35,552 nt of DNA, taken from a virus (lineage: Duplodnaviria > Heunggongvirae > Uroviricota > Caudoviricetes). A program made the translations under genes and the position numbers. This document shows positions 13,986-31,019 of the stretch, piece after piece; position 1 is the stretch's first letter, and each line of letters begins with the position of its first letter. The stretch is from the IMG/VR virus record IMGVR_UViG_2645727510_000007; one strand, 5' to 3'. The notes under the pieces are model-generated. The model had not been told where the DNA came from. It ran no database searches and saw nothing but the letters and a program-made list of their open reading frames with translations.

Positions 13986-15068
13986 ATGAAAAAATTAACA
14001 GTGGCAATTTCTGCTGTAGCTGCATCAGTACTGATGGCGATGTCTGCTCAGGCAGCTGAAATTTATAATAAAGACAGTAACAAGCTGGATCTATATGGGA
14101 AAGTTAATGCCAAGCACTACTTCTCCTCTAATGATGCAGATGATGGTGATACTACTTATGCCCGTCTTGGCTTCAAAGGTGAAACCCAAATCAACGATCA
14201 ACTGACTGGTTTCGGTCAGTGGGAATATGAATTCAAAGGCAACCGCGCTGAATCTCAAGGCTCCTCCAAAGACAAAACCCGTCTTGCATTTGCAGGCCTG
14301 AAATTCGGGGACTACGGCTCAATCGATTACGGCCGTAACTACGGTGTAGCATATGACATCGGTGCGTGGACTGACGTTCTGCCAGAATTCGGTGGCGATA
14401 CCTGGACCCAAACAGATGTGTTCATGACTGGTCGCACCACTGGTGTTGCAACTTATCGTAACAACGACTTCTTTGGTCTGGTTGATGGTCTGAACTTTGC
14501 TGCTCAGTATCAGGGTAAAAATGACCGCACTGACGTAACTGAAGCTAATGGTGATGGTTTCGGTTTCTCCACTACTTATGAGTATGAAGGATTCGGTGTA
14601 GGTGCAACCTATGCTAAATCTGACCGCACTAATAATCAGGTTATCTACGGTAACAACAGCCTGAATGCATCTGGTCAAAATGCTGAAGTATGGGCAGCTG
14701 GTCTGAAATATGATGCGAACAACATCTATCTGGCTACCACCTATTCTGAAACCCAGAACATGACTGTTTTTGGTAATAACCATATTGCCAACAAAGCACA
14801 AAACTTCGAAGTAGTTGCACAATATCAGTTCGACTTCGGTCTGCGTCCGTCCGTTGCTTACCTGCAATCTAAAGGAAAAGACTTGGGTGCGTGGGGTGAT
14901 CAGGACCTGGTTGAATATATTGATGTAGGTGCAACCTATTACTTCAACAAAAATATGTCCACTTTTGTTGATTACAAAATCAACCTGATTGATAAGAGCG
15001 ATTTCACGAAAGCATCTGGCGTTGCTACCGATGATATCGTTGCTGTAGGTATGGTTTACCAGTTCTAA
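13986..15068 (+). CDS. Outer-membrane general porin, OmpC/OmpF/PhoE family (NmpC/Lc-like prophage porin)
   Basis: 360-aa ORF with signal peptide ([23 protein letters not shown]), classic porin motifs ([17 protein letters not shown]..., C-terminal ...VAVGMVYQF). Sits between Q and the lysis genes like nmpC in DLP12 and lc in PA-2. Confidence 0.9.
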
Positions 15069-17555: not shown

Positions 17556-19058
17556 ATGACTCAAACTCCACTATTACTTGCAATCATATTTTTATTGGTT
17601 GTTCTTGTTCTTTATATAGCTGCAATCAAACGCATCAAAAAAATACAATTAGAATTAAGTGATAGCAATCAAAAAAATGAAGAATACAAATCTCGCTTTG
17701 CAGATTATTTTAATGTAGAAGAAGAATGTAAGAAGCTTATTGAGAAAACAGAGCAAGAATGCTCCATAATAAAAGAAGAATCCCAAAAAGTAAAAGAAAA
17801 TGCCAATAATGAACTAACAAACACCATTGAAAAAATGGATGGTATCAATAAACAAATCCAAGAGCTAAGAAGAACTTATAAAGAGAAGAAAGAAATATAT
17901 GATAAACTAGTAAGGCAAATTTCTATTTATTCAGAAGATGTTGAGCTAGCCGAGCTAGGATTTTACGAACCTCATTTTAATTTTGAAGATTCAGAGCAAT
18001 TTAAAAACAAAATAAAATCCATCAGGGATGAACAGAAATTAATGCTGCGGGATAAAACCCACTCTGGCGCAGTATATTGTACAACCCAATGGACTGTTGA
18101 AGGCTCTCGAGCAGAGGGTAAAAAAATGACAGACAGAAATATCAGGTTAACTACTAGAGCATTTAATAATGAATGTGATGCTGCAATTAGCAATTGCACG
18201 TGGAAAAATATCACTAAAATGGAAGAACGCATCACAAAGGCATTTGAGGCCATAAATAAACTAAACGAGCAAAATCACATATATATAAACACTAAATACC
18301 TCAATAAAAAACTTGAGGAATTGTGGCTTACCCATGAATATCGTGAGCAAAAACAGAAAGAAAAAGAAGAACAGGCAGAAATAAGGGCACAAATGAGAGA
18401 GGAGGAGCGTGCACAACGAGAAATAGAAAAGGCCATGCAAGACGCAGAGGCAGAAGAGCGCCGTTATAAAAAAGCAATTGAAGCTGCAAGAAAGGAAATG
18501 GAAAAAGTTACTGGTGACATGAAGCAGCGCCTCGAAAATCGCATTGCCGAACTAGAACAGAGTTTGTCGCAGGCTGAATCAAAGCATCAAAGAGCATTAT
18601 CCATGGCACAACAAACCAAACAAGGTCATGTTTATATTATTTCGAACATAGGTTCTTTTGGGGAGAATGTTTATAAAATAGGCATGACACGACGTCTTGA
18701 TCCGCAAGACCGTGTAAATGAGCTCGGTGATGCATCTGTTCCATTTATTTTTGATGTGCATGCTATGATTTATTCGGAGGACGCTCCATCATTAGAAAAA
18801 AAACTACATGATGTCTTCGATAAAAAGAGAGTCAATCTTGTAAATCGTAGAAAAGAGTTTTTCTATGTTACTCTGGATGAGATCAAAGAAGCTCTTAAAA
18901 AACACTCTGATTCAGAAATTGAATTTATTGAGACAGCAGTCGCAAAAGACTTTAATGAGTCATTGGCTATTCGTAATCATGAAAATAAAAAAAGTGACAA
19001 CAACAACTCATCAATTATACCTGAGCGAAAAACCCCAGAGTTTGCAGATGCAATTTAA
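17556..19058 (+). CDS. Membrane-anchored coiled-coil protein with C-terminal GIY-YIG-like (T5orf172-type) domain; DUF4041-like middle region; candidate defence or exclusion moron
   Basis: 500-aa ORF, strongly AT-rich and Lys/Glu/Asn-rich, on the strand opposite the flanking early-right operon. N-terminal TM helix (LLLAIIFLLVVLVLYIAAI), long heptad-rich K/E segments, C-terminal GHVYIISN...VYKIGMT...RVNELG motif. Domain names are from memory, not searched. Confidence 0.8.
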   Translation: MTQTPLLLAIIFLLVVLVLYIAAIKRIKKIQLELSDSNQKNEEYKSRFADYFNVEEECKKLIEKTEQECSIIKEESQKVKENANNELTNTIEKMDGINKQIQELRRTYKEKKEIYDKLVRQISIYSEDVELAELGFYEPHFNFEDSEQFKNKIKSIRDEQKLMLRDKTHSGAVYCTTQWTVEGSRAEGKKMTDRNIRLTTRAFNNECDAAISNCTWKNITKMEERITKAFEAINKLNEQNHIYINTKYLNKKLEELWLTHEYREQKQKEKEEQAEIRAQMREEERAQREIEKAMQDAEAEERRYKKAIEAARKEMEKVTGDMKQRLENRIAELEQSLSQAESKHQRALSMAQQTKQGHVYIISNIGSFGENVYKIGMTRRLDPQDRVNELGDASVPFIFDVHAMIYSEDAPSLEKKLHDVFDKKRVNLVNRRKEFFYVTLDEIKEALKKHSDSEIEFIETAVAKDFNESLAIRNHENKKSDNNNSSIIPERKTPEFADAI

Positions 19059-23010: not shown

Positions 23011-23874
23011 ATGGATTGTGACGCTTTACAGGATATAAAAATCTCTCTTAGGTATGACGGAAAAGATGCTTTAAATCATGAAATAGATTTGAACTGCCTA
23101 GGAGAATCCCTAAAGGGTTTTTCTAAAGTTCTCTCAACAGCAGCTTCTTTCTCTGTTACACAAAAATATAGTAAATACATTAATTATCAGGAAGTTAAGG
23201 TTTACGCACGCGAAGCAAAAGCTAACTGCTTTACTCTTGAAGCAGTTCTTAACTTCGCCACTCAGAACCAGTTGTTCTCGGGGATCGCCGCAACTATACT
23301 TGGCGCAATACTACAATATATTTTTGCGAGAAATTCTAACAAGAAAGATGAAATGAAAGCTTTGCAGCAGTCACTTGAAAAGGCCATAGAGGCACTAGGA
23401 AACAAGGATGCTGGAACCATTGATAAGTTGATCTCTTTGATTGACCGAATGGCTGTAGAGCTTCGCCCCTCTGTAAGGCAGGCAGTATCACCTATTGGTA
23501 ATACTTGCGATCAGATAAGTGTTGCAACAAATGTTGACGGCTGCCTTCTAAAAGTTAACGAGAGAGATAAAGCTGAAATTGATAGGCTTGATGATGATGA
23601 AGTTCTCGGTCTTCGTGAGTATCGTGCTTTTCTTACAGAATTTGATGCACAAAATATGACAGCTAAAATAATTTTAGATGGTGATGACTCAAAAAAGAGA
23701 ATCACTGCTGAAATTAGCGATCCAGCTGCAGGAAAGAAGAATAACCCGTATATTAGAGCTCTTAGTGCATATATATCAACCAAAGGTGATCCATCTGCAG
23801 TATTCACTATAACCGCAAAGGCTACTGTTAAAAAAGGCCAGATAAACAGGTTATTTATTGTAGATGCGAAATGA
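23011..23874 (+). CDS. Uncharacterised protein at the rexAB position, co-transcribed with cI; candidate exclusion or abortive-infection factor
   Basis: 287-aa ORF 66 nt after cI with no terminator between, followed by a strong terminator; AT-rich versus flanking cI; one hydrophobic segment ([19 protein letters not shown]); no resemblance to RexA/RexB that I can recognise. Confidence 0.75.
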
Positions 23875-24629: not shown

Positions 24630-24926
24630 ATGAACGCTTATTACATTCAGGATCGTCTTGAGGCTCAGAGCTGGGCGCGTCACTACCAGCAGATCGCCCG
24701 TGAAGAGAAAGAGGCAGAACTGGCAGACGACATGGAAAAAGGCCTGCCCCAGCACCTGTTTGAATCGCTATGCATCGATCATTTGCAACGCCACGGGGCC
24801 AGCAAAAAAGCCATTACCCGTGCGTTTGATGACGATGTTGAGTTTCAGGAGCGCATGGCAGAACACATCCGGTACATGGTTGAAACCATTGCTCACCACC
24901 AGGTTGATATTGATTCAGAGGTATAA
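24630..24926 (+). CDS. gam: Gam (RecBCD inhibitor), short GamS form only
   Basis: 98-aa [44 protein letters not shown]... near-identical to the C-terminal 98 aa of lambda Gam. Upstream in-frame sequence still encodes ...FRSSA but has no start codon. Confidence 0.9.
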
Positions 24927-24931
24927 AACGG

Positions 24932-25717
24932 ATGAGTACAGCACTCGCAACGCTGGCAGGGAAGCTGGCTGAACGTGTCGGCATGGATTCTGTCGACCCA
25001 CAGGAACTGATCACCACTCTTCGCCAGACGGCATTTAAAGGTGATGCCAGCGATGCGCAGTTCATCGCATTGCTGATCGTCGCCAACCAGTACGGCCTTA
25101 ATCCGTGGACGAAAGAAATTTACGCCTTCCCTGATAAGCAGAACGGCATCGTTCCGGTGGTGGGCGTTGATGGCTGGTCCCGCATCATCAATGAAAACCA
25201 GCAGTTTGATGGCATGGACTTTGAGCAGGACAATGAATCCTGCACATGCCGGATTTACCGCAAGGACCGTAATCATCCGATCTGCGTTACCGAATGGATG
25301 GATGAATGCCGCCGCGAACCATTCAAAACCCGCGAAGGCAGAGAAATCACGGGGCCGTGGCAGTCGCATCCCAAACGGATGTTACGGCATAAAGCCATGA
25401 TTCAGTGTGCCCGTCTGGCCTTCGGATTTGCTGGTATCTATGACAAGGATGAAGCCGAGCGCATTGTCGAAAATACCGCATACACTGCAGAACGTCAGCC
25501 GGAACGCGACATCACTCCGGTTAACGATGAAACCATGCAGGAGATTAACACTCTGCTGATAGCCCTGGATAAAACATGGGATGACGACTTATTGCCGCTC
25601 TGTTCCCAGATATTTCGCCGCGACATTCGCGCATCGTCAGAACTGACACAGGCCGAAGCAGTGAAAGCTCTTGGATTCCTGAAACAGAAAGCCACTGAGC
25701 AGAAGGTGGCAGCATGA
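24932..25717 (+). CDS. bet: Bet (Red-beta single-strand annealing protein)
   Basis: 261-aa ORF essentially identical in length and sequence to lambda Bet. Confidence 0.95.
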
Positions 25718-26394
25718 CACCGGACATTATCCTGCAGCGTACCGGGATCGACGTGAGAGCTGTCGAACAGGGGGATGATGCGTGGCACAAATTACGGCTC
25801 GGCGTCATCACCGCTTCAGAAGTTCACAACGTGATAGCAAAACCCCGCTCCGGAAAAAAGTGGCCTGACATGAAAATGTCCTACTTCCACACCCTGCTGG
25901 CTGAGGTTTGCACCGGTGTGGCTCCGGAAGTTAACGCTAAAGCGCTGGCCTGGGGAAAACAGTACGAGAACGACGCCAGAACCCTGTTTGAGTTCACTTC
26001 CGGCGTGAATGTTACTGAATCACCGATCATCTATCGCGACGAAAGTATGCGTACCGCCTGCTCTCCCGATGGTTTATGCAGTGACGGCAACGGCCTTGAA
26101 CTGAAATGCCCGTTTACCTCCCGGGATTTCATGAAGTTCCGGCTCGGTGGTTTCGAGGCCATAAAGTCAGCTTACATGGCCCAGGTGCAGTACAGCATGT
26201 GGGTGACGCGAAAAGATGCCTGGTACTTTGCCAACTATGACCCGCGTATGAAGCGTGAAGGACTGCATTATGTCGTGGTTGAGCGGGATGAAAAGTACAT
26301 GGCGAGTTTTGACGAGATGGTGCCGGAGTTCATCGAAAAAATGGACGAGGCACTGGCTGAAATTGGTTTTGTATTTGGGGAGCAATGGCGATGA
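25714..26394 (+). CDS. exo: Exo (lambda exonuclease, Red-alpha)
   Basis: 226-aa ORF matching lambda Exo; overlaps the bet stop. Confidence 0.95.
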
Positions 26395-26573
26395 CGCATC
26401 CTCACGATAATATCCGGGTAGGCGCGATCACTTTCATCTACTCCGTTACAAAGCGAGACTGGGTATTTCCCGGCCTTTCTGTTATCCAAAATCCACTGAA
26501 AGCCCAGCGGCTGGCTGAGGAGATAAATAATAAACGAGGGGCTGTATGCACAAAACATCTCCCGTTGAGTTAA
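26385..26573 (+). CDS. Hypothetical small protein
   Basis: 62-aa ORF, start overlapping the exo 3' end; part of a chain of overlapping small genes. Confidence 0.4.
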
Positions 26574-26737
26574 GGACGAGTATCGAGATGGCACATAGCC
26601 TCGCTCAAATTGGAGTCAGGTTTGTGCCAATACCAGTAGAAACAGACGAAGAATTTCATACGTTAGCCACATCCCTTTCACAAAAGCTGGAAATGATGGT
26701 GGCGAAAGCAGAAGCAGATGAGAGAGACCAGGTATGA
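26546..26737 (+). CDS. Hypothetical small protein
   Basis: 63-aa ORF; its stop overlaps the next ATG (ATGA). Confidence 0.45.
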   Translation: MHKTSPVELRTSIEMAHSLAQIGVRFVPIPVETDEEFHTLATSLSQKLEMMVAKAEADERDQV

Positions 26738-26817
26738 CAACCACTGAATGCATTTTTCTGGCAGCGGGCTTCATATTCTGTGTGCTTATGCTTGCCGACA
26801 TGGGACTTGTTCAATGA
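26734..26817 (+). CDS. Putative 27-aa hydrophobic membrane peptide (MTTTECIFLAAGFIFCVLMLADMGLVQ)
   Basis: ATG overlaps the upstream stop and its own stop overlaps the downstream ATG (ATGA both ends); single predicted TM helix. Read manually. Confidence 0.35.
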   Translation: MTTTECIFLAAGFIFCVLMLADMGLVQ

Positions 26818-27029
26818 CACCTCAGCAAGAAAACGCCCTTCGCAGTATTGCCCGTCAGGCTAATTATGAAATCAAAAAAGCCAGACAGCAGTTTCCGGAT
26901 AAAAACGTCGATGACATTTGCCGTAGCGTACTGAAAAAGCACCGCGAAACGGTAACGCTGATGGGATTCACACCGACTCATTTAAGCCTGGCGATCGGCA
27001 TGTTAAACGGCGTCTTTAAGGAACGGTGA
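26814..27029 (+). CDS. Hypothetical small protein
   Basis: ORF 26748..27029; ATG at 26814 (MTPQQENALRSIARQ...) is translationally coupled to the upstream peptide. Confidence 0.45.
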   Translation: MTPQQENALRSIARQANYEIKKARQQFPDKNVDDICRSVLKKHRETVTLMGFTPTHLSLAIGMLNGVFKER

Positions 27030-27051
27030 ACATGAAAAACAAAATCATCAT

Positions 27052-27072
27052 GGAGCTACAGGCTCCTTTTTT
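27052..27072 (+). terminator. Rho-independent terminator
   Basis: ggagc-tacag-gctcc hairpin followed by tttttt. Confidence 0.6.
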
Positions 27073-27127
27073 ATTGTTCGCATTCACCCTCAAGCGTATT
27101 AACCAACAATTCAGGGATTAATGGAAG

Positions 27128-27349
27128 ATGGCAGACATCATTGATTCAGCATCAGAAATTGAAGAATTACAGCGCAACACAGCAATAAAAATGCGCCGCC
27201 TGAACCACCAGGCTATATCTGCCACTCATTGTTGTGAGTGTGGCGATCCCATAGATGAGCGAAGACGCCTGGCCGTTCAGGGTTGTCGGACTTGTGCAAG
27301 TTGCCAGCAAGATCTGGAGCTTATCCGCAAACAAAGGGGGATTAAGTGA
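27128..27349 (+). CDS. DksA/TraR-family C4 zinc-finger protein
   Basis: 73-aa ORF with CxxC...CxxC pattern (CCECGDPIDERRRLAVQGCRTCASC); SD ggaag; lambda Orf73 is a TraR homologue at a similar position. Confidence 0.8.
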   Translation: MADIIDSASEIEELQRNTAIKMRRLNHQAISATHCCECGDPIDERRRLAVQGCRTCASCQQDLELIRKQRGIK

Positions 27350-27633
27350 TGGCTAACCTGCAACTTGCTGTTAAAAGTGAATACTTCGATGCCATGATTC
27401 GCGGAGAGAAAACGGAAGAGTATCGCCTTGTTAATGACTACTGGAAAAAGCGCCTCGTTAACCGCGAGTATGGCAGTCTGATCATCACGAAGGGGTATCC
27501 GAAGCGCGACGATTCCAGCCGCAGAATTGATGTTCCGTATGGCGGATATGAAATCAAGACAATCACACATCCGCACTTCGGCGATAAACCGGTAAAGGTA
27601 TACGCGATAAAGGTGAATATCGGCAATGAATAA
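27349..27633 (+). CDS. Hypothetical protein (possibly ASCH/PUA-like)
   Basis: ATG overlaps the TraR-like stop (TGATG); 94 aa; family guess is weak. Confidence 0.45.
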   Translation: MANLQLAVKSEYFDAMIRGEKTEEYRLVNDYWKKRLVNREYGSLIITKGYPKRDDSSRRIDVPYGGYEIKTITHPHFGDKPVKVYAIKVNIGNE

Positions 27634-27682
27634 CAATCCTCGCATTGGCGGGGATTTCTTTTATCTGAAAAGGACAGAATAC

Positions 27683-28426
27683 ATGATTAACAATATTGCA
27701 AATCAGTCTTCGTTTCCGGCTGCAACAATTGACAGCCAGATGCTGTTGAAAATGGTTAATGAGGCGCGGAGACTGTGAGGCGAAAAAGAAGTACGCAACA
27801 ACGACTTCATTGCACGCATCAAAGATGAGCTTGAGGGGGAGGGTTACGAAATTTTCGTAACCCCCATGGATAAGAAAAAAGGCGGAGCGGATCAGGTGGT
27901 TATAGTGATGACCTACAAGCAAGCCCTGCGCGTCGCCGCACGTGAGTCGAAAGCCGTCCGTCGTTCGCTGGTCGACAAACTTGAATCAATGCAACAGCAG
28001 TTGCAACAAAAAACGACCACGAAGAAATCACCGGATGGCCTTGAAGAATTCCGTAAGGCACGCGCATTGAAAATGACCGTCGACACAATGAAAGACCTCT
28101 TCGACTTCCTCCCTCACCTCGCACCGGAAGCTAAACAGGTCGTTGCCGCCAGCCTGATTAATCCCGTCGTCGGCTTTAGTGCAATCCCTCTTCCGGTCAT
28201 TGATGAACATCACTACTCTGCGTCGGAGGTTGGCACCATGCTTGGCATTTCAGCCAACAAGGTAGGGCGCATTGCCAACACCTACATGCTCAAAACAGAA
28301 AAGTACGGGAAGTGGTTCATCGACAAATCGGCGCACAGTGACAAGCAGGTCGAGACATTTCGCTACAACGAGGCGGGAGTGCACAAGATCGAGGAACTCA
28401 TCGAAGGAGAACGAAAGGCTGCATGA
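27683..28426 (+). pseudogene. Antirepressor-like gene split by an in-frame TGA at 27776..27778 (C-terminal 186-aa ORF 27866..28426 intact)
   Basis: ATG 27683 opens a frame encoding MINNIANQSSFPAATIDSQMLLKMVNEARRL, stop TGA, then the same frame continues GEKEVRNNDFIARIKDELEGEGYEIFVTPMDKKKGG... to 28426. Confidence 0.5.
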
Positions 28427-29456: not shown

Positions 29457-29675
29457 ATGTACTTGACACTTCAGGAGTGGAACGCACGCCAGCGACGCCC
29501 AAGAAGCCCTGAAACAGTTCGTCGATGGGTACGCGAGTGCAGGATATTCCCTCCTCCGGTTAAGGATGGAAGAGAGTATCTGTTCCACGAATCAGCGGTA
29601 AAGGTTGACTTAAATCGACCAGTAACAGGTAGCCTTTTGAAGAGGATCAGAAATGGGAAGAAGGCGAAGTCATGA
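29457..29675 (+). CDS. xis: Excisionase Xis
   Basis: 72-aa ORF MYLTLQEWNARQRRPRSPETVRRWVRECRIFPPPVKDGREYLFHESAVKVDLNRP... near-identical to lambda Xis; overlaps int as in lambda. Confidence 0.95.
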   Translation: MYLTLQEWNARQRRPRSPETVRRWVRECRIFPPPVKDGREYLFHESAVKVDLNRPVTGSLLKRIRNGKKAKS

Positions 29676-30726
29676 GCGCCGGGATTTACCCCCTAACCTT
29701 TATATAAGAAACAATGGATATTACTGCTACAGGGACCCAAGGACGGGTAAAGAGTTCGGATTAGGCAGAGACAGGAGGATAGCAATCACTGAAGCAATAC
29801 AGGCCAACATTGAGTTACTCTCAGACAGCGGACGGGAGTCACTGATAGACAGAATTAAAGGCGCTGACACAATCACTCTTCATACGTGGCTTGACCGATA
29901 TGAAACAATCCTCACCGAAAGGGGTATCAGACCGAAAACTCTACTCGACTACGCCAGCAAAATCAGGGCAATCCGAAGAAAATTGCCGGACAAACCGCTC
30001 ACTGACATATCAACGAAAGAGGTGGCTGCAATGCTAAACACCTACGTCGCAGAAGGTAAAGCAGCGTCCGCAAGAGTAATCAGGTCAACCCTTGTTGACG
30101 TTTTTCGTGAGGCAATAGCCGAGGGGCATGTGGCAACGAATCCGGTAACAGCAACCCGCGCAGCAAAGTCAGAAGTAAGGCGCTCAAGGCTGACAGCTAA
30201 TGAGTATGTCGCGATTTACCATGCAGCCGAACATCTCCCAATCTGGCTGAGGCTGGCAATGGATTTGGCTGTCGTTACAGGGCAGAGAGTAGGCGATTTA
30301 TGCAGAATGAAATGGTCAGACATAAACGACAACCATCTTCACATTGAGCAGGGTAAAACAGGGGCTAAGCTCGCCATTCCGCTGACGCTAACGATTGACG
30401 CGCTCAATATCTCATTGGCTGATACACTACAGAAATGCAGGGAGGCCAGCGGCAGTGAAACAATAATTGCATCAACGCATCACGAACCGCTTTCCCCGAA
30501 AACAGTATCTAAGTATTTTACAAAGGCGAGAAATGCATCTGGACTCTCATTTGATGGAGACCCGCCAACATTCCATGAACTGCGTAGCCTGTCGGCGAGG
30601 CTATACCGGAATCAGATTGGCGATAAGTTTGCTCAACGTCTTCTCGGGCATAAATCAGATTCAATGGCGGCGCGGTATAGGGACAGCCGAGGGAGAGAAT
30701 GGGACAAAATTGAAATCAATAAATGA
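29653..30726 (+). CDS. int: Tyrosine integrase Int (lambda family)
   Basis: 357-aa ORF; N-terminal arm-binding domain identical to lambda Int (MGRRRSHERRDLPPNLYIRNNGYYCYRDPRTGKEFGLGRDRRIAITEAIQANIEL), catalytic region conserved (...HELRSLSARLY...LLGHKSD...) with scattered substitutions. Confidence 0.95.
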   Translation: MGRRRSHERRDLPPNLYIRNNGYYCYRDPRTGKEFGLGRDRRIAITEAIQANIELLSDSGRESLIDRIKGADTITLHTWLDRYETILTERGIRPKTLLDYASKIRAIRRKLPDKPLTDISTKEVAAMLNTYVAEGKAASARVIRSTLVDVFREAIAEGHVATNPVTATRAAKSEVRRSRLTANEYVAIYHAAEHLPIWLRLAMDLAVVTGQRVGDLCRMKWSDINDNHLHIEQGKTGAKLAIPLTLTIDALNISLADTLQKCREASGSETIIASTHHEPLSPKTVSKYFTKARNASGLSFDGDPPTFHELRSLSARLYRNQIGDKFAQRLLGHKSDSMAARYRDSRGREWDKIEINK

Positions 30727-30840: not shown

Positions 30841-30998
30841 CAGCATCCGGCTGAAATCTGCGGCTTACCTCCTTTCGCCCTGTATGTAGTCTATCGCTAA
30901 CGCGTAGATAAAATAGTTTCCTGTGTTATTACTGGATGCGTGCTCGCAAATGTGCCCGCCATTCAGACGATTCCCGATAGTGTTTCATAATTCCTCCA

Positions 30999-31019
30999 TT
31001 TTTCTCCCTTATTGGCTGG
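30999..31019 (+). promoter_or_regulatory. BaeR-box-like response-regulator site in the mdtA promoter
   Basis: tttttctcccttattggctgg matches the recalled BaeR consensus (TTTTTCTCCnnnATTGGC), about 50 bp upstream of mdtA. Confidence 0.6.

Follow-up and report, generated by a model that had tools for sequence, protein, structure and literature searches.

We analysed a 35,552-nt stretch of viral DNA (IMG/VR virus record IMGVR_UViG_2645727510_000007; hereafter the window, whose coordinates are used unless stated otherwise) and examined a small open reading frame (sORF) of 27 codons that lies between the genes orf63 and orf61, at 26734..26817 on the plus strand. The sORF, which would encode the peptide MTTTECIFLAAGFIFCVLMLADMGLVQ, is probably a genuine protein-coding gene of the early pL operon in lambda-type prophages, and neither an extension of orf61 nor a non-coding spacer. 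Judging from allele patterns and gene arrangement, its product is most likely a translated single-pass membrane micro-protein that is made by termination-reinitiation and passes ribosomes on to orf61. A first-pass annotation of the window had described four small plus-strand open reading frames (ORFs) 3' of exo (26385..26573, 62 aa; 26546..26737; 26734..26817; and 26814..27029) as a tightly coupled chain. The ORF list places all four as described, and a reading of their junctions bears out the coupling. The gene chain itself was already known; what is new is the sORF, a predicted, unannotated small phage membrane protein in a coupled operon.

Polymorphism in the sORF frame follows the pattern of a coding sequence. 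We projected 234 related loci onto the window, all of them closely related, recombining sequences, and took counts of peptides, starts, and junctions from 212 related loci. The interior of the sORF (26738-26813) holds 27 variant alleles, with 14 synonymous, 12 non-synonymous, and one stop in the sORF frame, where the expected synonymous fraction is 0.25 (p = 0.003). Over the same interval, nine of the 27 are synonymous in the frame of a published 93-aa model of orf61 (p = 0.2) and five in the third plus-strand frame. After de-duplication, alleles present on at least two distinct haplotypes comprise 10 synonymous and 5 non-synonymous changes in the sORF frame (p = 8e-4), with 4/15 synonymous in the 93-aa frame. 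Measured against the most divergent haplotype (90% identity, from Escherichia coli TUM13867), the sORF frame has a ratio of non-synonymous to synonymous polymorphism (pN/pS) of 0.13, compared with 0.93 for the frame of the orf61 extension. Eight alleles are carried by at least five loci, and six of these (26742, 26745 T>G, 26745 T>A, 26766, 26778, and 26805) are silent in the sORF frame, the exceptions being 26755 (F8L) and 26798 (D22G); in the orf61-extension frame, most of the eight are non-synonymous or stop-changing. The same test applied to the neighbours gave 25/51 synonymous alleles for the core of orf61 and only 12/37 for orf63, the structure of which has been solved. By this measure the sORF looks as 'coding' as its accepted neighbours.

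The reading frame is also well preserved. The peptide is identical in 180/212 loci, with residues F13-L20 invariant, and the frame contains no indels; ATG is retained in 210/212 loci, and the ATG together with all 27 codons in 208/212. At the junction between the sORF stop and the orf61 start, CAATGA occurs in 173 loci, CAGTGA in 37, and TAATGA in 2, where the allele 26814 A>G (37/212) keeps Gln27 of the sORF and turns the orf61 start into GTG. The arrangement is kept in 210/212 loci and thus exceeds what chance would give. The ATGA stop-start overlaps that the first-pass annotation described are present between orf63 and the sORF (26734-26737) and between the sORF and orf61 (26814-26817), but not between orf60a and orf63, which overlap by 28 nt and share no ATGA. 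The sORF segment is found in 3216 of 5426 complete E. coli genomes (about 59%), and the orf63-to-sORF junction in 2815 of them.

Properties of the peptide are consistent with a membrane location. The description of the third ORF as a conserved gene for a hydrophobic, transmembrane-like peptide stood up, with the gene in 210/212 loci and a grand average of hydropathy (GRAVY) of 1.62 for MTTTECIFLAAGFIFCVLMLADMGLVQ. A 21-residue apolar stretch, C6-V26, has a mean Kyte-Doolittle value of 2.4 and falls in the range of about 19-21 residues that spans a bilayer, as in a single-pass membrane protein. The peptide has no Lys or Arg and two acidic residues, for a net charge of -2. Such hydropathy is rare in the window, with a GRAVY of at least 1.5 in only 3/209 ATG-initiated ORFs of 20-40 aa across all six frames. 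Searches with the peptide against Pfam, PHROGs, NCBIfam, and PADLOC gave no match, the sole line being a sub-threshold hit to MtrF (E 0.03). The suggestion that none of the four ORFs is assignable by sequence therefore holds for the sORF, which belongs to no family, but fails for orf60a (DUF1317), orf63 (DUF1382), and orf61, because these three are known exo-xis genes. In a tblastn search, the peptide matched 176 phage records, with an identity of ≥99% in 138, and across phages and plasmids only the same cassette was recovered, with no distant homologue. At the RNA level, Rfam gave no family in 25500-28000, and mRNA folding at the sORF is, if anything, weaker than in shuffled controls (z = +2.0), which argues against an RNA element there.

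Sequence databases do contain the exact peptide, which has now and then been called as a 'hypothetical protein' (at least 981 contigs; UniRef A0A0A2SGE8 is one instance). The sORF is unannotated in every annotation that we inspected, namely those of lambda, 933W, Phi24B, ST2-8624, 21, 434, 1W, mEp332, 4A7, and RefSeq E. coli. The exo-xis papers that we searched make no mention of it, the peptide string was found neither in a literature search nor in the supplements of Hucker et al. 2017, and a literature search on retapamulin and lambda returned nothing relevant.

Comparison of gene neighbourhoods shows the sORF to be an independent mosaic unit whose borders match the sense reading frame. A phage dam methylase stands upstream in place of orf63 in 311 complete E. 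coli genomes. In these dam-type prophages, homology to the window starts exactly at the ATG of the sORF (26734), the dam stop overlaps it as ATGA, and the sORF is preceded by a strong Shine-Dalgarno (SD) sequence, GGGAGG (-10.3 kcal/mol). When the 3' ends of dam genes are aligned, they are homologous through GCATGAC (GGGAGGCnGCATGAC) and are then followed by 80 extra nt only in the E. coli lambda-type loci; in distant relatives, an orf61-like gene lies directly behind Dam or MT-A70 with a 4-nt overlap and no sORF. In a third architecture, designated H14 and found in 100 E. coli genomes, the cassette is missing and orf61 is preceded by a GAGG SD of its own (-5.6 kcal/mol). The 80-nt cassette keeps an ATGA overlap both with the upstream gene, be it orf63 or dam, and with orf61, because it is inserted exactly at the ATGA stop/start junction. 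Its GC content is 0.46, compared with 0.45-0.48 in the flanks, and a scan found neither a promoter nor a terminator inside it.

Where orf61 starts bears directly on the sORF, and the first-pass annotation had overlooked that the peptide ORF clashes with the published 61-aa and 93-aa models of orf61. In the curated CPT annotations and in those of the Prokaryotic Genome Annotation Pipeline (PGAP), orf61 has 71 aa (26814-27029) and is separated from orf63 by a 77-nt 'gap'. In 933W and Phi24B (vb_24B_7c), a 93-aa orf61 begins at ATG 26748 and overlaps the sORF in another frame, and in the lambda reference a 61-aa orf61 starts further upstream in that same other frame. By homologue alignment and gene-model comparison, orf61 is shown to start at 26814, with a predicted product of 71 aa. 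An exhaustive HMMER search recovered Orf61 relatives of 69-78 aa and 30-48% identity from Cronobacter, Citrobacter, Enterobacter, Leclercia, and Tolumonas, and all of these remote relatives align N-terminally with the 71-aa start (M-T-P-E..NALR). An AlphaFold2 model of the 71-aa protein is complete without any extension, with a predicted local distance difference test (pLDDT) score of 92 and helices at residues 3-26, 32-49, and 54-64. The start at 26814 is ATG in the window and has a weak SD (-3.9 kcal/mol), and ATG 26748 has no properly spaced SD. We considered and rejected the N-terminal 22-32 residues of the longer models as part of conserved Orf61, since the relatives and the H14 variant start at the Met of the 71-aa form and the frame of the extension carries no coding signal.

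The lambda model can be traced to two sequence differences. The lambda equivalent of the sORF is intact (30925-31008, minus strand). Lambda has G for T at window position 26745, which changes ACT to ACG within a Thr codon of the sORF and removes a TGA in the other frame, and an A-run that is longer by one A, which puts the real orf61 out of frame (NC_001416 30839-31024 compared with window 26718-26880). The 61-aa model exists only because the T>G change removes the in-frame TGA and the additional A shifts the frame. Lambda 'Orf61' is thus a chimera that joins 32 residues read in the wrong frame, 23 genuine ones, and a tail that is frameshifted, and the real 71-aa orf61 is a pseudogene in lambda PaPa-type sequences. 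The +1 A insertion is present in 20 loci of the sample, mostly lambda DNA.

We weighed several other explanations for the conserved frame. In one, the sORF is translated but acts only in cis, as a relay that couples orf61 to orf63 or dam, with the peptide as a by-product. The weak SD of orf61, its GTG start in 37/212 loci, and the presence of a GAGG SD of its own in the sORF-less H14 variant fit such a role, as do the ATGA kept at both ends of the sORF and the location of the cassette exactly at a coupling junction. However, the amino acids themselves appear to be under purifying selection (14/27 alleles synonymous, F13-L20 invariant, an identical peptide in 85% of loci), a sequence-independent relay need not be strongly hydrophobic, and no relay is needed in distant relatives, which couple orf61 directly to the methylase. 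We therefore regard a relay without a functional peptide as unlikely. A membrane-damaging toxin or superinfection-exclusion factor, comparable to type I toxins or phage exclusion proteins and in line with the toxin or exclusion role raised by the first-pass annotation, would suit a small and very hydrophobic peptide, and the exo-xis region reduces the survival of the host, disturbs its replication and cell cycle (PMC3824215), and raises the envelope-stress transcripts degP and htpX (PMC10789677). These effects were never mapped to the sORF, though, and the sORF is operon-internal and ATGA-coupled, without a promoter or terminator of its own. Neither an antisense promoter-like site suited to an antitoxin nor an Rfam RNA lies in 25500-28000, and PADLOC gave no match. 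The peptide lacks cationic residues, unlike the Hok, TisB, and Ldr toxins, and transcription from pL, which the prophage repressor keeps off, is the wrong expression state for a prophage exclusion factor. A toxin or exclusion factor is accordingly somewhat less likely still than a bare relay.

The sORF could instead be untranslated, either as the 5' portion of a longer orf61 (93 aa in 933W and Phi24B, 61 aa in lambda) or as a conserved spacer or promoter. The 93-aa form is annotated in those two phages and is called by many gene callers, the overlapping frame is open in all loci, and the stretch contains the weak, BPROM-predicted promoter p2-lambda (ATGCAT / TCATATTCT; PMC4195576). Against this, only 9/27 alleles are synonymous in the extended frame (p = 0.2), the common alleles alter its amino acids (at the real start, for instance, Met becomes Val), and the 26748 ATG is without a properly spaced SD. 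The remote homologues, the H14 variant, and the AlphaFold2 model all define a 71-aa protein, the lambda 61-aa model rests on a T>G change that is synonymous in the sORF plus a frameshift, and residues 1-23 of the 93-aa form are unreliable in published models (PMC8614690). These comparisons largely refute an untranslated or extended-orf61 reading, which we consider improbable. Finally, the coding-like pattern might derive from an antisense 61-aa ORF (26616-26801, minus strand), which shares the wobble positions of the sORF, with 12/27 alleles synonymous (p = 0.02), and is open in 190/195 loci. Yet the part of it that overlaps orf63 has no signal (8/26, p = 0.31), and it is not conserved as a unit, because its counterpart in the dam context is a 44-aa ORF whose C-terminal half is unrelated, while the sense sORF is exactly conserved. 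The cassette borders also fit the sense ORF, and the sole promoter-like site in 26200-27400 (26294-26267, minus strand) could not transcribe the antisense ORF because it lies downstream of it on that strand, nor could it give rise to an RNA antisense to the sORF. We judge the antisense ORF unlikely to be a gene, its signal probably being a passenger of that of the sense sORF, and rank an antisense origin of the pattern as the most improbable of these alternatives.

The preferred reading, a translated membrane micro-protein, suggests the following sequence of events. Ribosomes that finish orf63 or dam would reinitiate at the overlapping AUG, aided by the SD-like GAGAGAGA or, in the dam context, by GGGAGG. 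The 27-residue, acidic, Lys/Arg-free peptide would insert as a single helix in the inner membrane, and ribosomes that terminate at its UGA would reinitiate on orf61, which has a weak SD of its own and an overlapping AUG or GUG start. More speculatively, the peptide might target a membrane protein or the host envelope, and might contribute to phenotypes attributed to 'orf61' or to exo-xis, such as shifts between lysis and lysogeny and the induction of degP and htpX. On infection with Phi24B that lacks the exo-xis region, degP (-3.0 log2) and htpX (-2.4 log2) were the most reduced host stress genes (PMC10789677, Table 4). As a hint about the sORF this is circumstantial, as the deleted region holds many other genes.

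Several observations weigh against a functional membrane micro-protein. Summed on the Hessa scale, the estimated energy for inserting the apolar stretch is about 0 kcal/mol, and without Lys or Arg there is no positive-inside signal, so that membrane topology is unpredictable. The SD in the orf63 context, GAGAGAGA, is only moderate (-5.6 kcal/mol). No homologue was found beyond the cassette, and therefore no specific function is supported. The start codon is ATA in two loci (L059 and L070), through a G>A change at 26736 (lambda 31006) that leaves orf63 with a TAA stop, and codon 27 is a stop in two; because of such variants, and because 100 genomes have orf61 without the cassette, the sORF is dispensable. 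The substitution sample is small (27 alleles) and drawn from closely related, recombining sequences, and the antisense frame described above shares its wobble positions. In addition, a review that cites ribosome profiling of lambda lists only a 7-aa and a 31-aa ORF as extra ORFs in this region (PMC8614690). The same review reports that ribosome profiling confirmed expression across the exo-xis ORFs (PMC8614690). Footprints on the sORF would be credited to orf61, because the lambda annotation of orf61 overlaps it.

The sORF can be compared with several known systems. AcrZ, MgtS, and YohP exemplify the small inner-membrane proteins of E. coli and its phages that were found by ribosome profiling or tagging. 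Like them, the sORF product is shorter than 50 aa, has a predicted single hydrophobic helix, and was missed by annotation pipelines; it differs in having no basic residues, a net charge of -2, a phage origin, ATGA coupling on both sides, and homologues only within the 80-nt cassette. With the type I toxins Hok/Gef, TisB, Ibs, Ldr, and ShoB, the sORF shares a short hydrophobic transmembrane peptide. Unlike them, it is embedded in an operon, has no long structured 5' untranslated region, and has no cationic residues; Rfam over 25500-28000 and a promoter scan over 26200-27400 revealed neither an antisense or divergent RNA antitoxin nor a promoter of its own. Lambda Kil, Rac KilR, and DicB are small host-targeting early products of lambdoid phages, and are soluble division inhibitors without a transmembrane helix. 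The sORF product would likewise be a small product of the pL operon, but has no sequence similarity to them and is transmembrane-like.

The organization of the cassette also has precedents. Morons, reportedly described by Hendrix and colleagues in HK97 and lambda, are extra genes inserted between neighbours, classically with their own promoter and terminator and often with deviating GC content. The cassette is similarly extra DNA between genes that are adjacent in relatives (dam followed by orf61), but is only 80 nt long, has no promoter or terminator that we could find, matches its flanks in GC content, and relies on translational coupling. Termination-reinitiation at overlapping AUGA occurs at trpB-trpA and in many phage operons. 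AUGA or GUGA is shared at both borders of the sORF and along the chain from bet and exo to orf73; what differs here is that a whole mini-gene has been slotted into a pre-existing AUGA junction, with the junction duplicated. The exo-xis block studied by the Wegrzyn and Donaldson laboratories is the same locus, and orf60a, orf63, and orf61 of the window are its genes. The sORF falls outside the described gene set, and the described orf61 overlaps it in another frame.

If the sORF is a gene, published work on orf61 needs to be read differently. Genes of exo-xis have been studied singly, with gene models that are apparently wrong at the sORF, and the orf61 models of lambda (61 aa) and of 933W and Phi24B (93 aa) would need correction to 71 aa. 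The orf61 deletions made in lambda and Phi24B replaced the 'orf61' sequence as annotated (PMC6213356), and because annotated orf61 overlaps the sORF, these deletions removed all of the sORF in lambda and most of it in Phi24B. Phenotypes of orf61 deletion or frameshift would then be confounded by the loss of a second gene. Lambda Orf61 has been called truncated and unstructured in a review (PMC8614690). Because the true orf61 of lambda is already frameshifted, the mild phenotypes of lambda orf61 deletions could stem from the sORF or from polarity. It is a tentative and rather doubtful proposition that lambda and the prophages of more than half of complete E. coli genomes encode an unrecognised early membrane micro-protein, which could account for what is ascribed to lambda 'orf61', namely more lysogens and altered induction. 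If the sORF is a gene, functional work gains a very widespread prophage-encoded membrane peptide, carried by about 59% of complete E. coli genomes. The locus also offers a clean example of a mini-gene inserted in a translational-coupling junction.

The window is an integrated lambdoid prophage with terminase, porin, CI-like repressor, gam-bet-exo, and integrase genes, followed by host mdtA/mdtB-like genes. Pfam places gam, bet, and exo at 24630, 24932, and 25714, respectively, and the integrase gene occupies 29653-30726. The block that contains the sORF lies 3' of gam-bet-exo on the same strand and 5' of orf73, xis, and int, as does the exo-xis block of lambda, and the stretch is 95-99% identical in nucleotide sequence to lambda, 434, 21, and many Shiga toxin (Stx) phages (187 phage records). 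Its features are as follows.

25714..26394, plus strand: exo (lambda exonuclease, YqaJ family; Pfam YqaJ, E 4e-30), the stop of which overlaps the orf60a start as ATGA.
26391..26573, plus strand: orf60a (DUF1317), 60 aa (Pfam, E 2e-37), annotated in its 183-nt form in lambda and by PGAP.
26546..26737, plus strand: orf63 (DUF1382), 63 aa (Pfam, E 1e-29; PDB 8DSB, a nuclear magnetic resonance structure, E 3e-32).
26734..26817, plus strand: the 27-codon sORF with predicted peptide MTTTECIFLAAGFIFCVLMLADMGLVQ (ORF list), overlapping the orf63 stop and the orf61 start as ATGA.
26734..26813, plus strand: the 80-nt cassette that carries the sORF, with the direct repeat ATGACA at 26734-26739 and 26814-26819.
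26748..26813, plus strand: rejected N-terminal extension of orf61 (93-aa model; also the N-terminus of lambda 'orf61'), in a frame different from that of the sORF.
26814..27029, plus strand: orf61, 71 aa (phrog_303, E 2e-35; PGAP and CPT annotations).
27026..27121, plus strand: 31-aa ORF with a GTG start (ORF list); an alternative ATG at 27032 would give 29 aa.
27052..27074, plus strand: intrinsic-terminator-like hairpin GGAGCTACAGGCTCC (27052-27066) and T-run (terminator scan), the 't2' of the exo-xis literature (PMC4195576, Table 4).
27128..27349, plus strand: orf73, with a DksA/TraR-type zinc finger (Pfam zf-dskA_traR, E 5e-9; phrog_54), the next conserved exo-xis gene.

The exo-xis region is non-essential and is transcribed early from pL, and it affects lysogenisation, induction, and host physiology (PMC3824215, PMC4195576, PMC6213356, PMC8614690, PMC10695390). 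Within it, orf60a, orf63, orf61, and orf73 are genes conserved in both lambda and Stx phages that influence the decision between lysis and lysogeny (PMC6213356, PMC8614690, PMC10695390). The exo/orf60a junction is ATGA (26391-26394), the bet/exo junction is likewise ATGA, and orf61 meets the 31-aa ORF at GTGA (27026-27029). The longer, 62-aa form of orf60a would start at 26385, an in-frame ATG two codons 5' of 26391. A GGGGAG SD lies 8 nt before 26391 and only 2 nt before 26385. Because of this correct spacing and the ATGA overlap with the exo stop, 26391 is the more likely start, yielding the 60-aa product found in lambda.

Genes of the Orf61 family are nearly always ATGA-coupled behind a phage adenine methyltransferase, Dam or MT-A70, as in loci L240-L243 (from Cronobacter, Citrobacter, E. 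coli, and Leclercia) and in L113 (947-1796). This arrangement suggests that Orf61 is functionally linked to the methylase, which orf63 has replaced in lambda-type phages. In E. coli B (NEBExpress; L114), the DLP12 prophage keeps a truncated dam, an intact sORF, orf61, orf73, and a DUF4222 gene beside intD and emrE. Because DLP12 of the B strain keeps the sORF, common BL21-type laboratory strains carry it, and lambda-DE3 lysogens among them carry it twice. An IS3-family element interrupts orf61 in one E. coli chromosome (L030, 1093-2701), where the upstream sORF is intact.

Some published names and matches for Orf61 did not survive closer comparison. A Foldseek search of the Orf61 model against the PDB gave nothing below E = 1, and because a homeodomain appeared only in twelfth place (E 4.3), the published 'homeodomain-like' call was not reproduced as significant. 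The name 'cell division protein ZapA', which RefSeq/PGAP gives to many copies of Orf61, was rejected, as Pfam and NCBIfam gave no ZapA match (at E ≤ 0.01 or ≤ 1) and the PDB no fold match with E under 1; the name seems to be a misnomer that has been propagated. When the PDB was searched by sequence with Orf61, it returned weak ankyrin-repeat-like matches to GFTPTHLSLAIGMLNG, with a best E of 5e-4. A scan of GTDB with Orf61 recovered only Escherichia and lambda DNA contaminating unrelated assemblies. Three seemingly 'divergent' matches were discarded, one as a low-quality, indel-ridden assembly (P0068), one as a disruption by an IS3-family element (P0035), and one as a deletion remnant (P0025).

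Assemblies that bear the names Shewanella, Pseudomonas, Bradyrhizobium, Paenibacillus, Kitasatospora, and others contain lambda DNA as contigs of about 48.5 kb or as fragments (L011-L028). Further lambda copies are recorded as 48,499-bp 'plasmids' from Stenotrophomonas and Paenibacillus (NZ_CP104294.1, NZ_CP068597.1) and as a 'Campylobacter phage' (MW057783.1). These misplaced lambda records are almost certainly sequencing-control contamination.

The 31-aa ORF downstream of orf61, with product MNMKNKIIMELQAPFLLFAFTLKRINQQFRD, is GTGA-coupled to orf61 and spans the t2 hairpin; its annotation is sporadic and includes phages 21 and 434. Polymorphism in it is mildly coding-like, with 14/36 variant alleles synonymous (p = 0.02). 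The lambda ORF list also contains a 31-aa ORF at this place, and a review describes a 31-aa 'orf2313' in this region of lambda that is supported by ribosome profiling (PMC8614690), to which the ORF in the window probably corresponds. A second terminator-like hairpin, CTGGGTATTTCCCGG, followed by a T-rich tail, lies inside orf60a at 26459-26473 and is the 't1' predicted in the exo-xis literature.

Elsewhere in the prophage, a general porin gene (13986-15068; Porin_1, E 3e-153) sits between the terminase and structural genes and the immunity region, and is probably a lysogenic-conversion gene. Two further genes are probable accessory or defence-type genes. One, at 17556-19058, encodes a 500-aa protein with DUF4041 and T5orf172/MUG113 domains, and the other, at 23011-23874, encodes a 287-aa DUF7946-DUF7947 protein right after the CI-like repressor gene, in the position that rexAB occupies in lambda.

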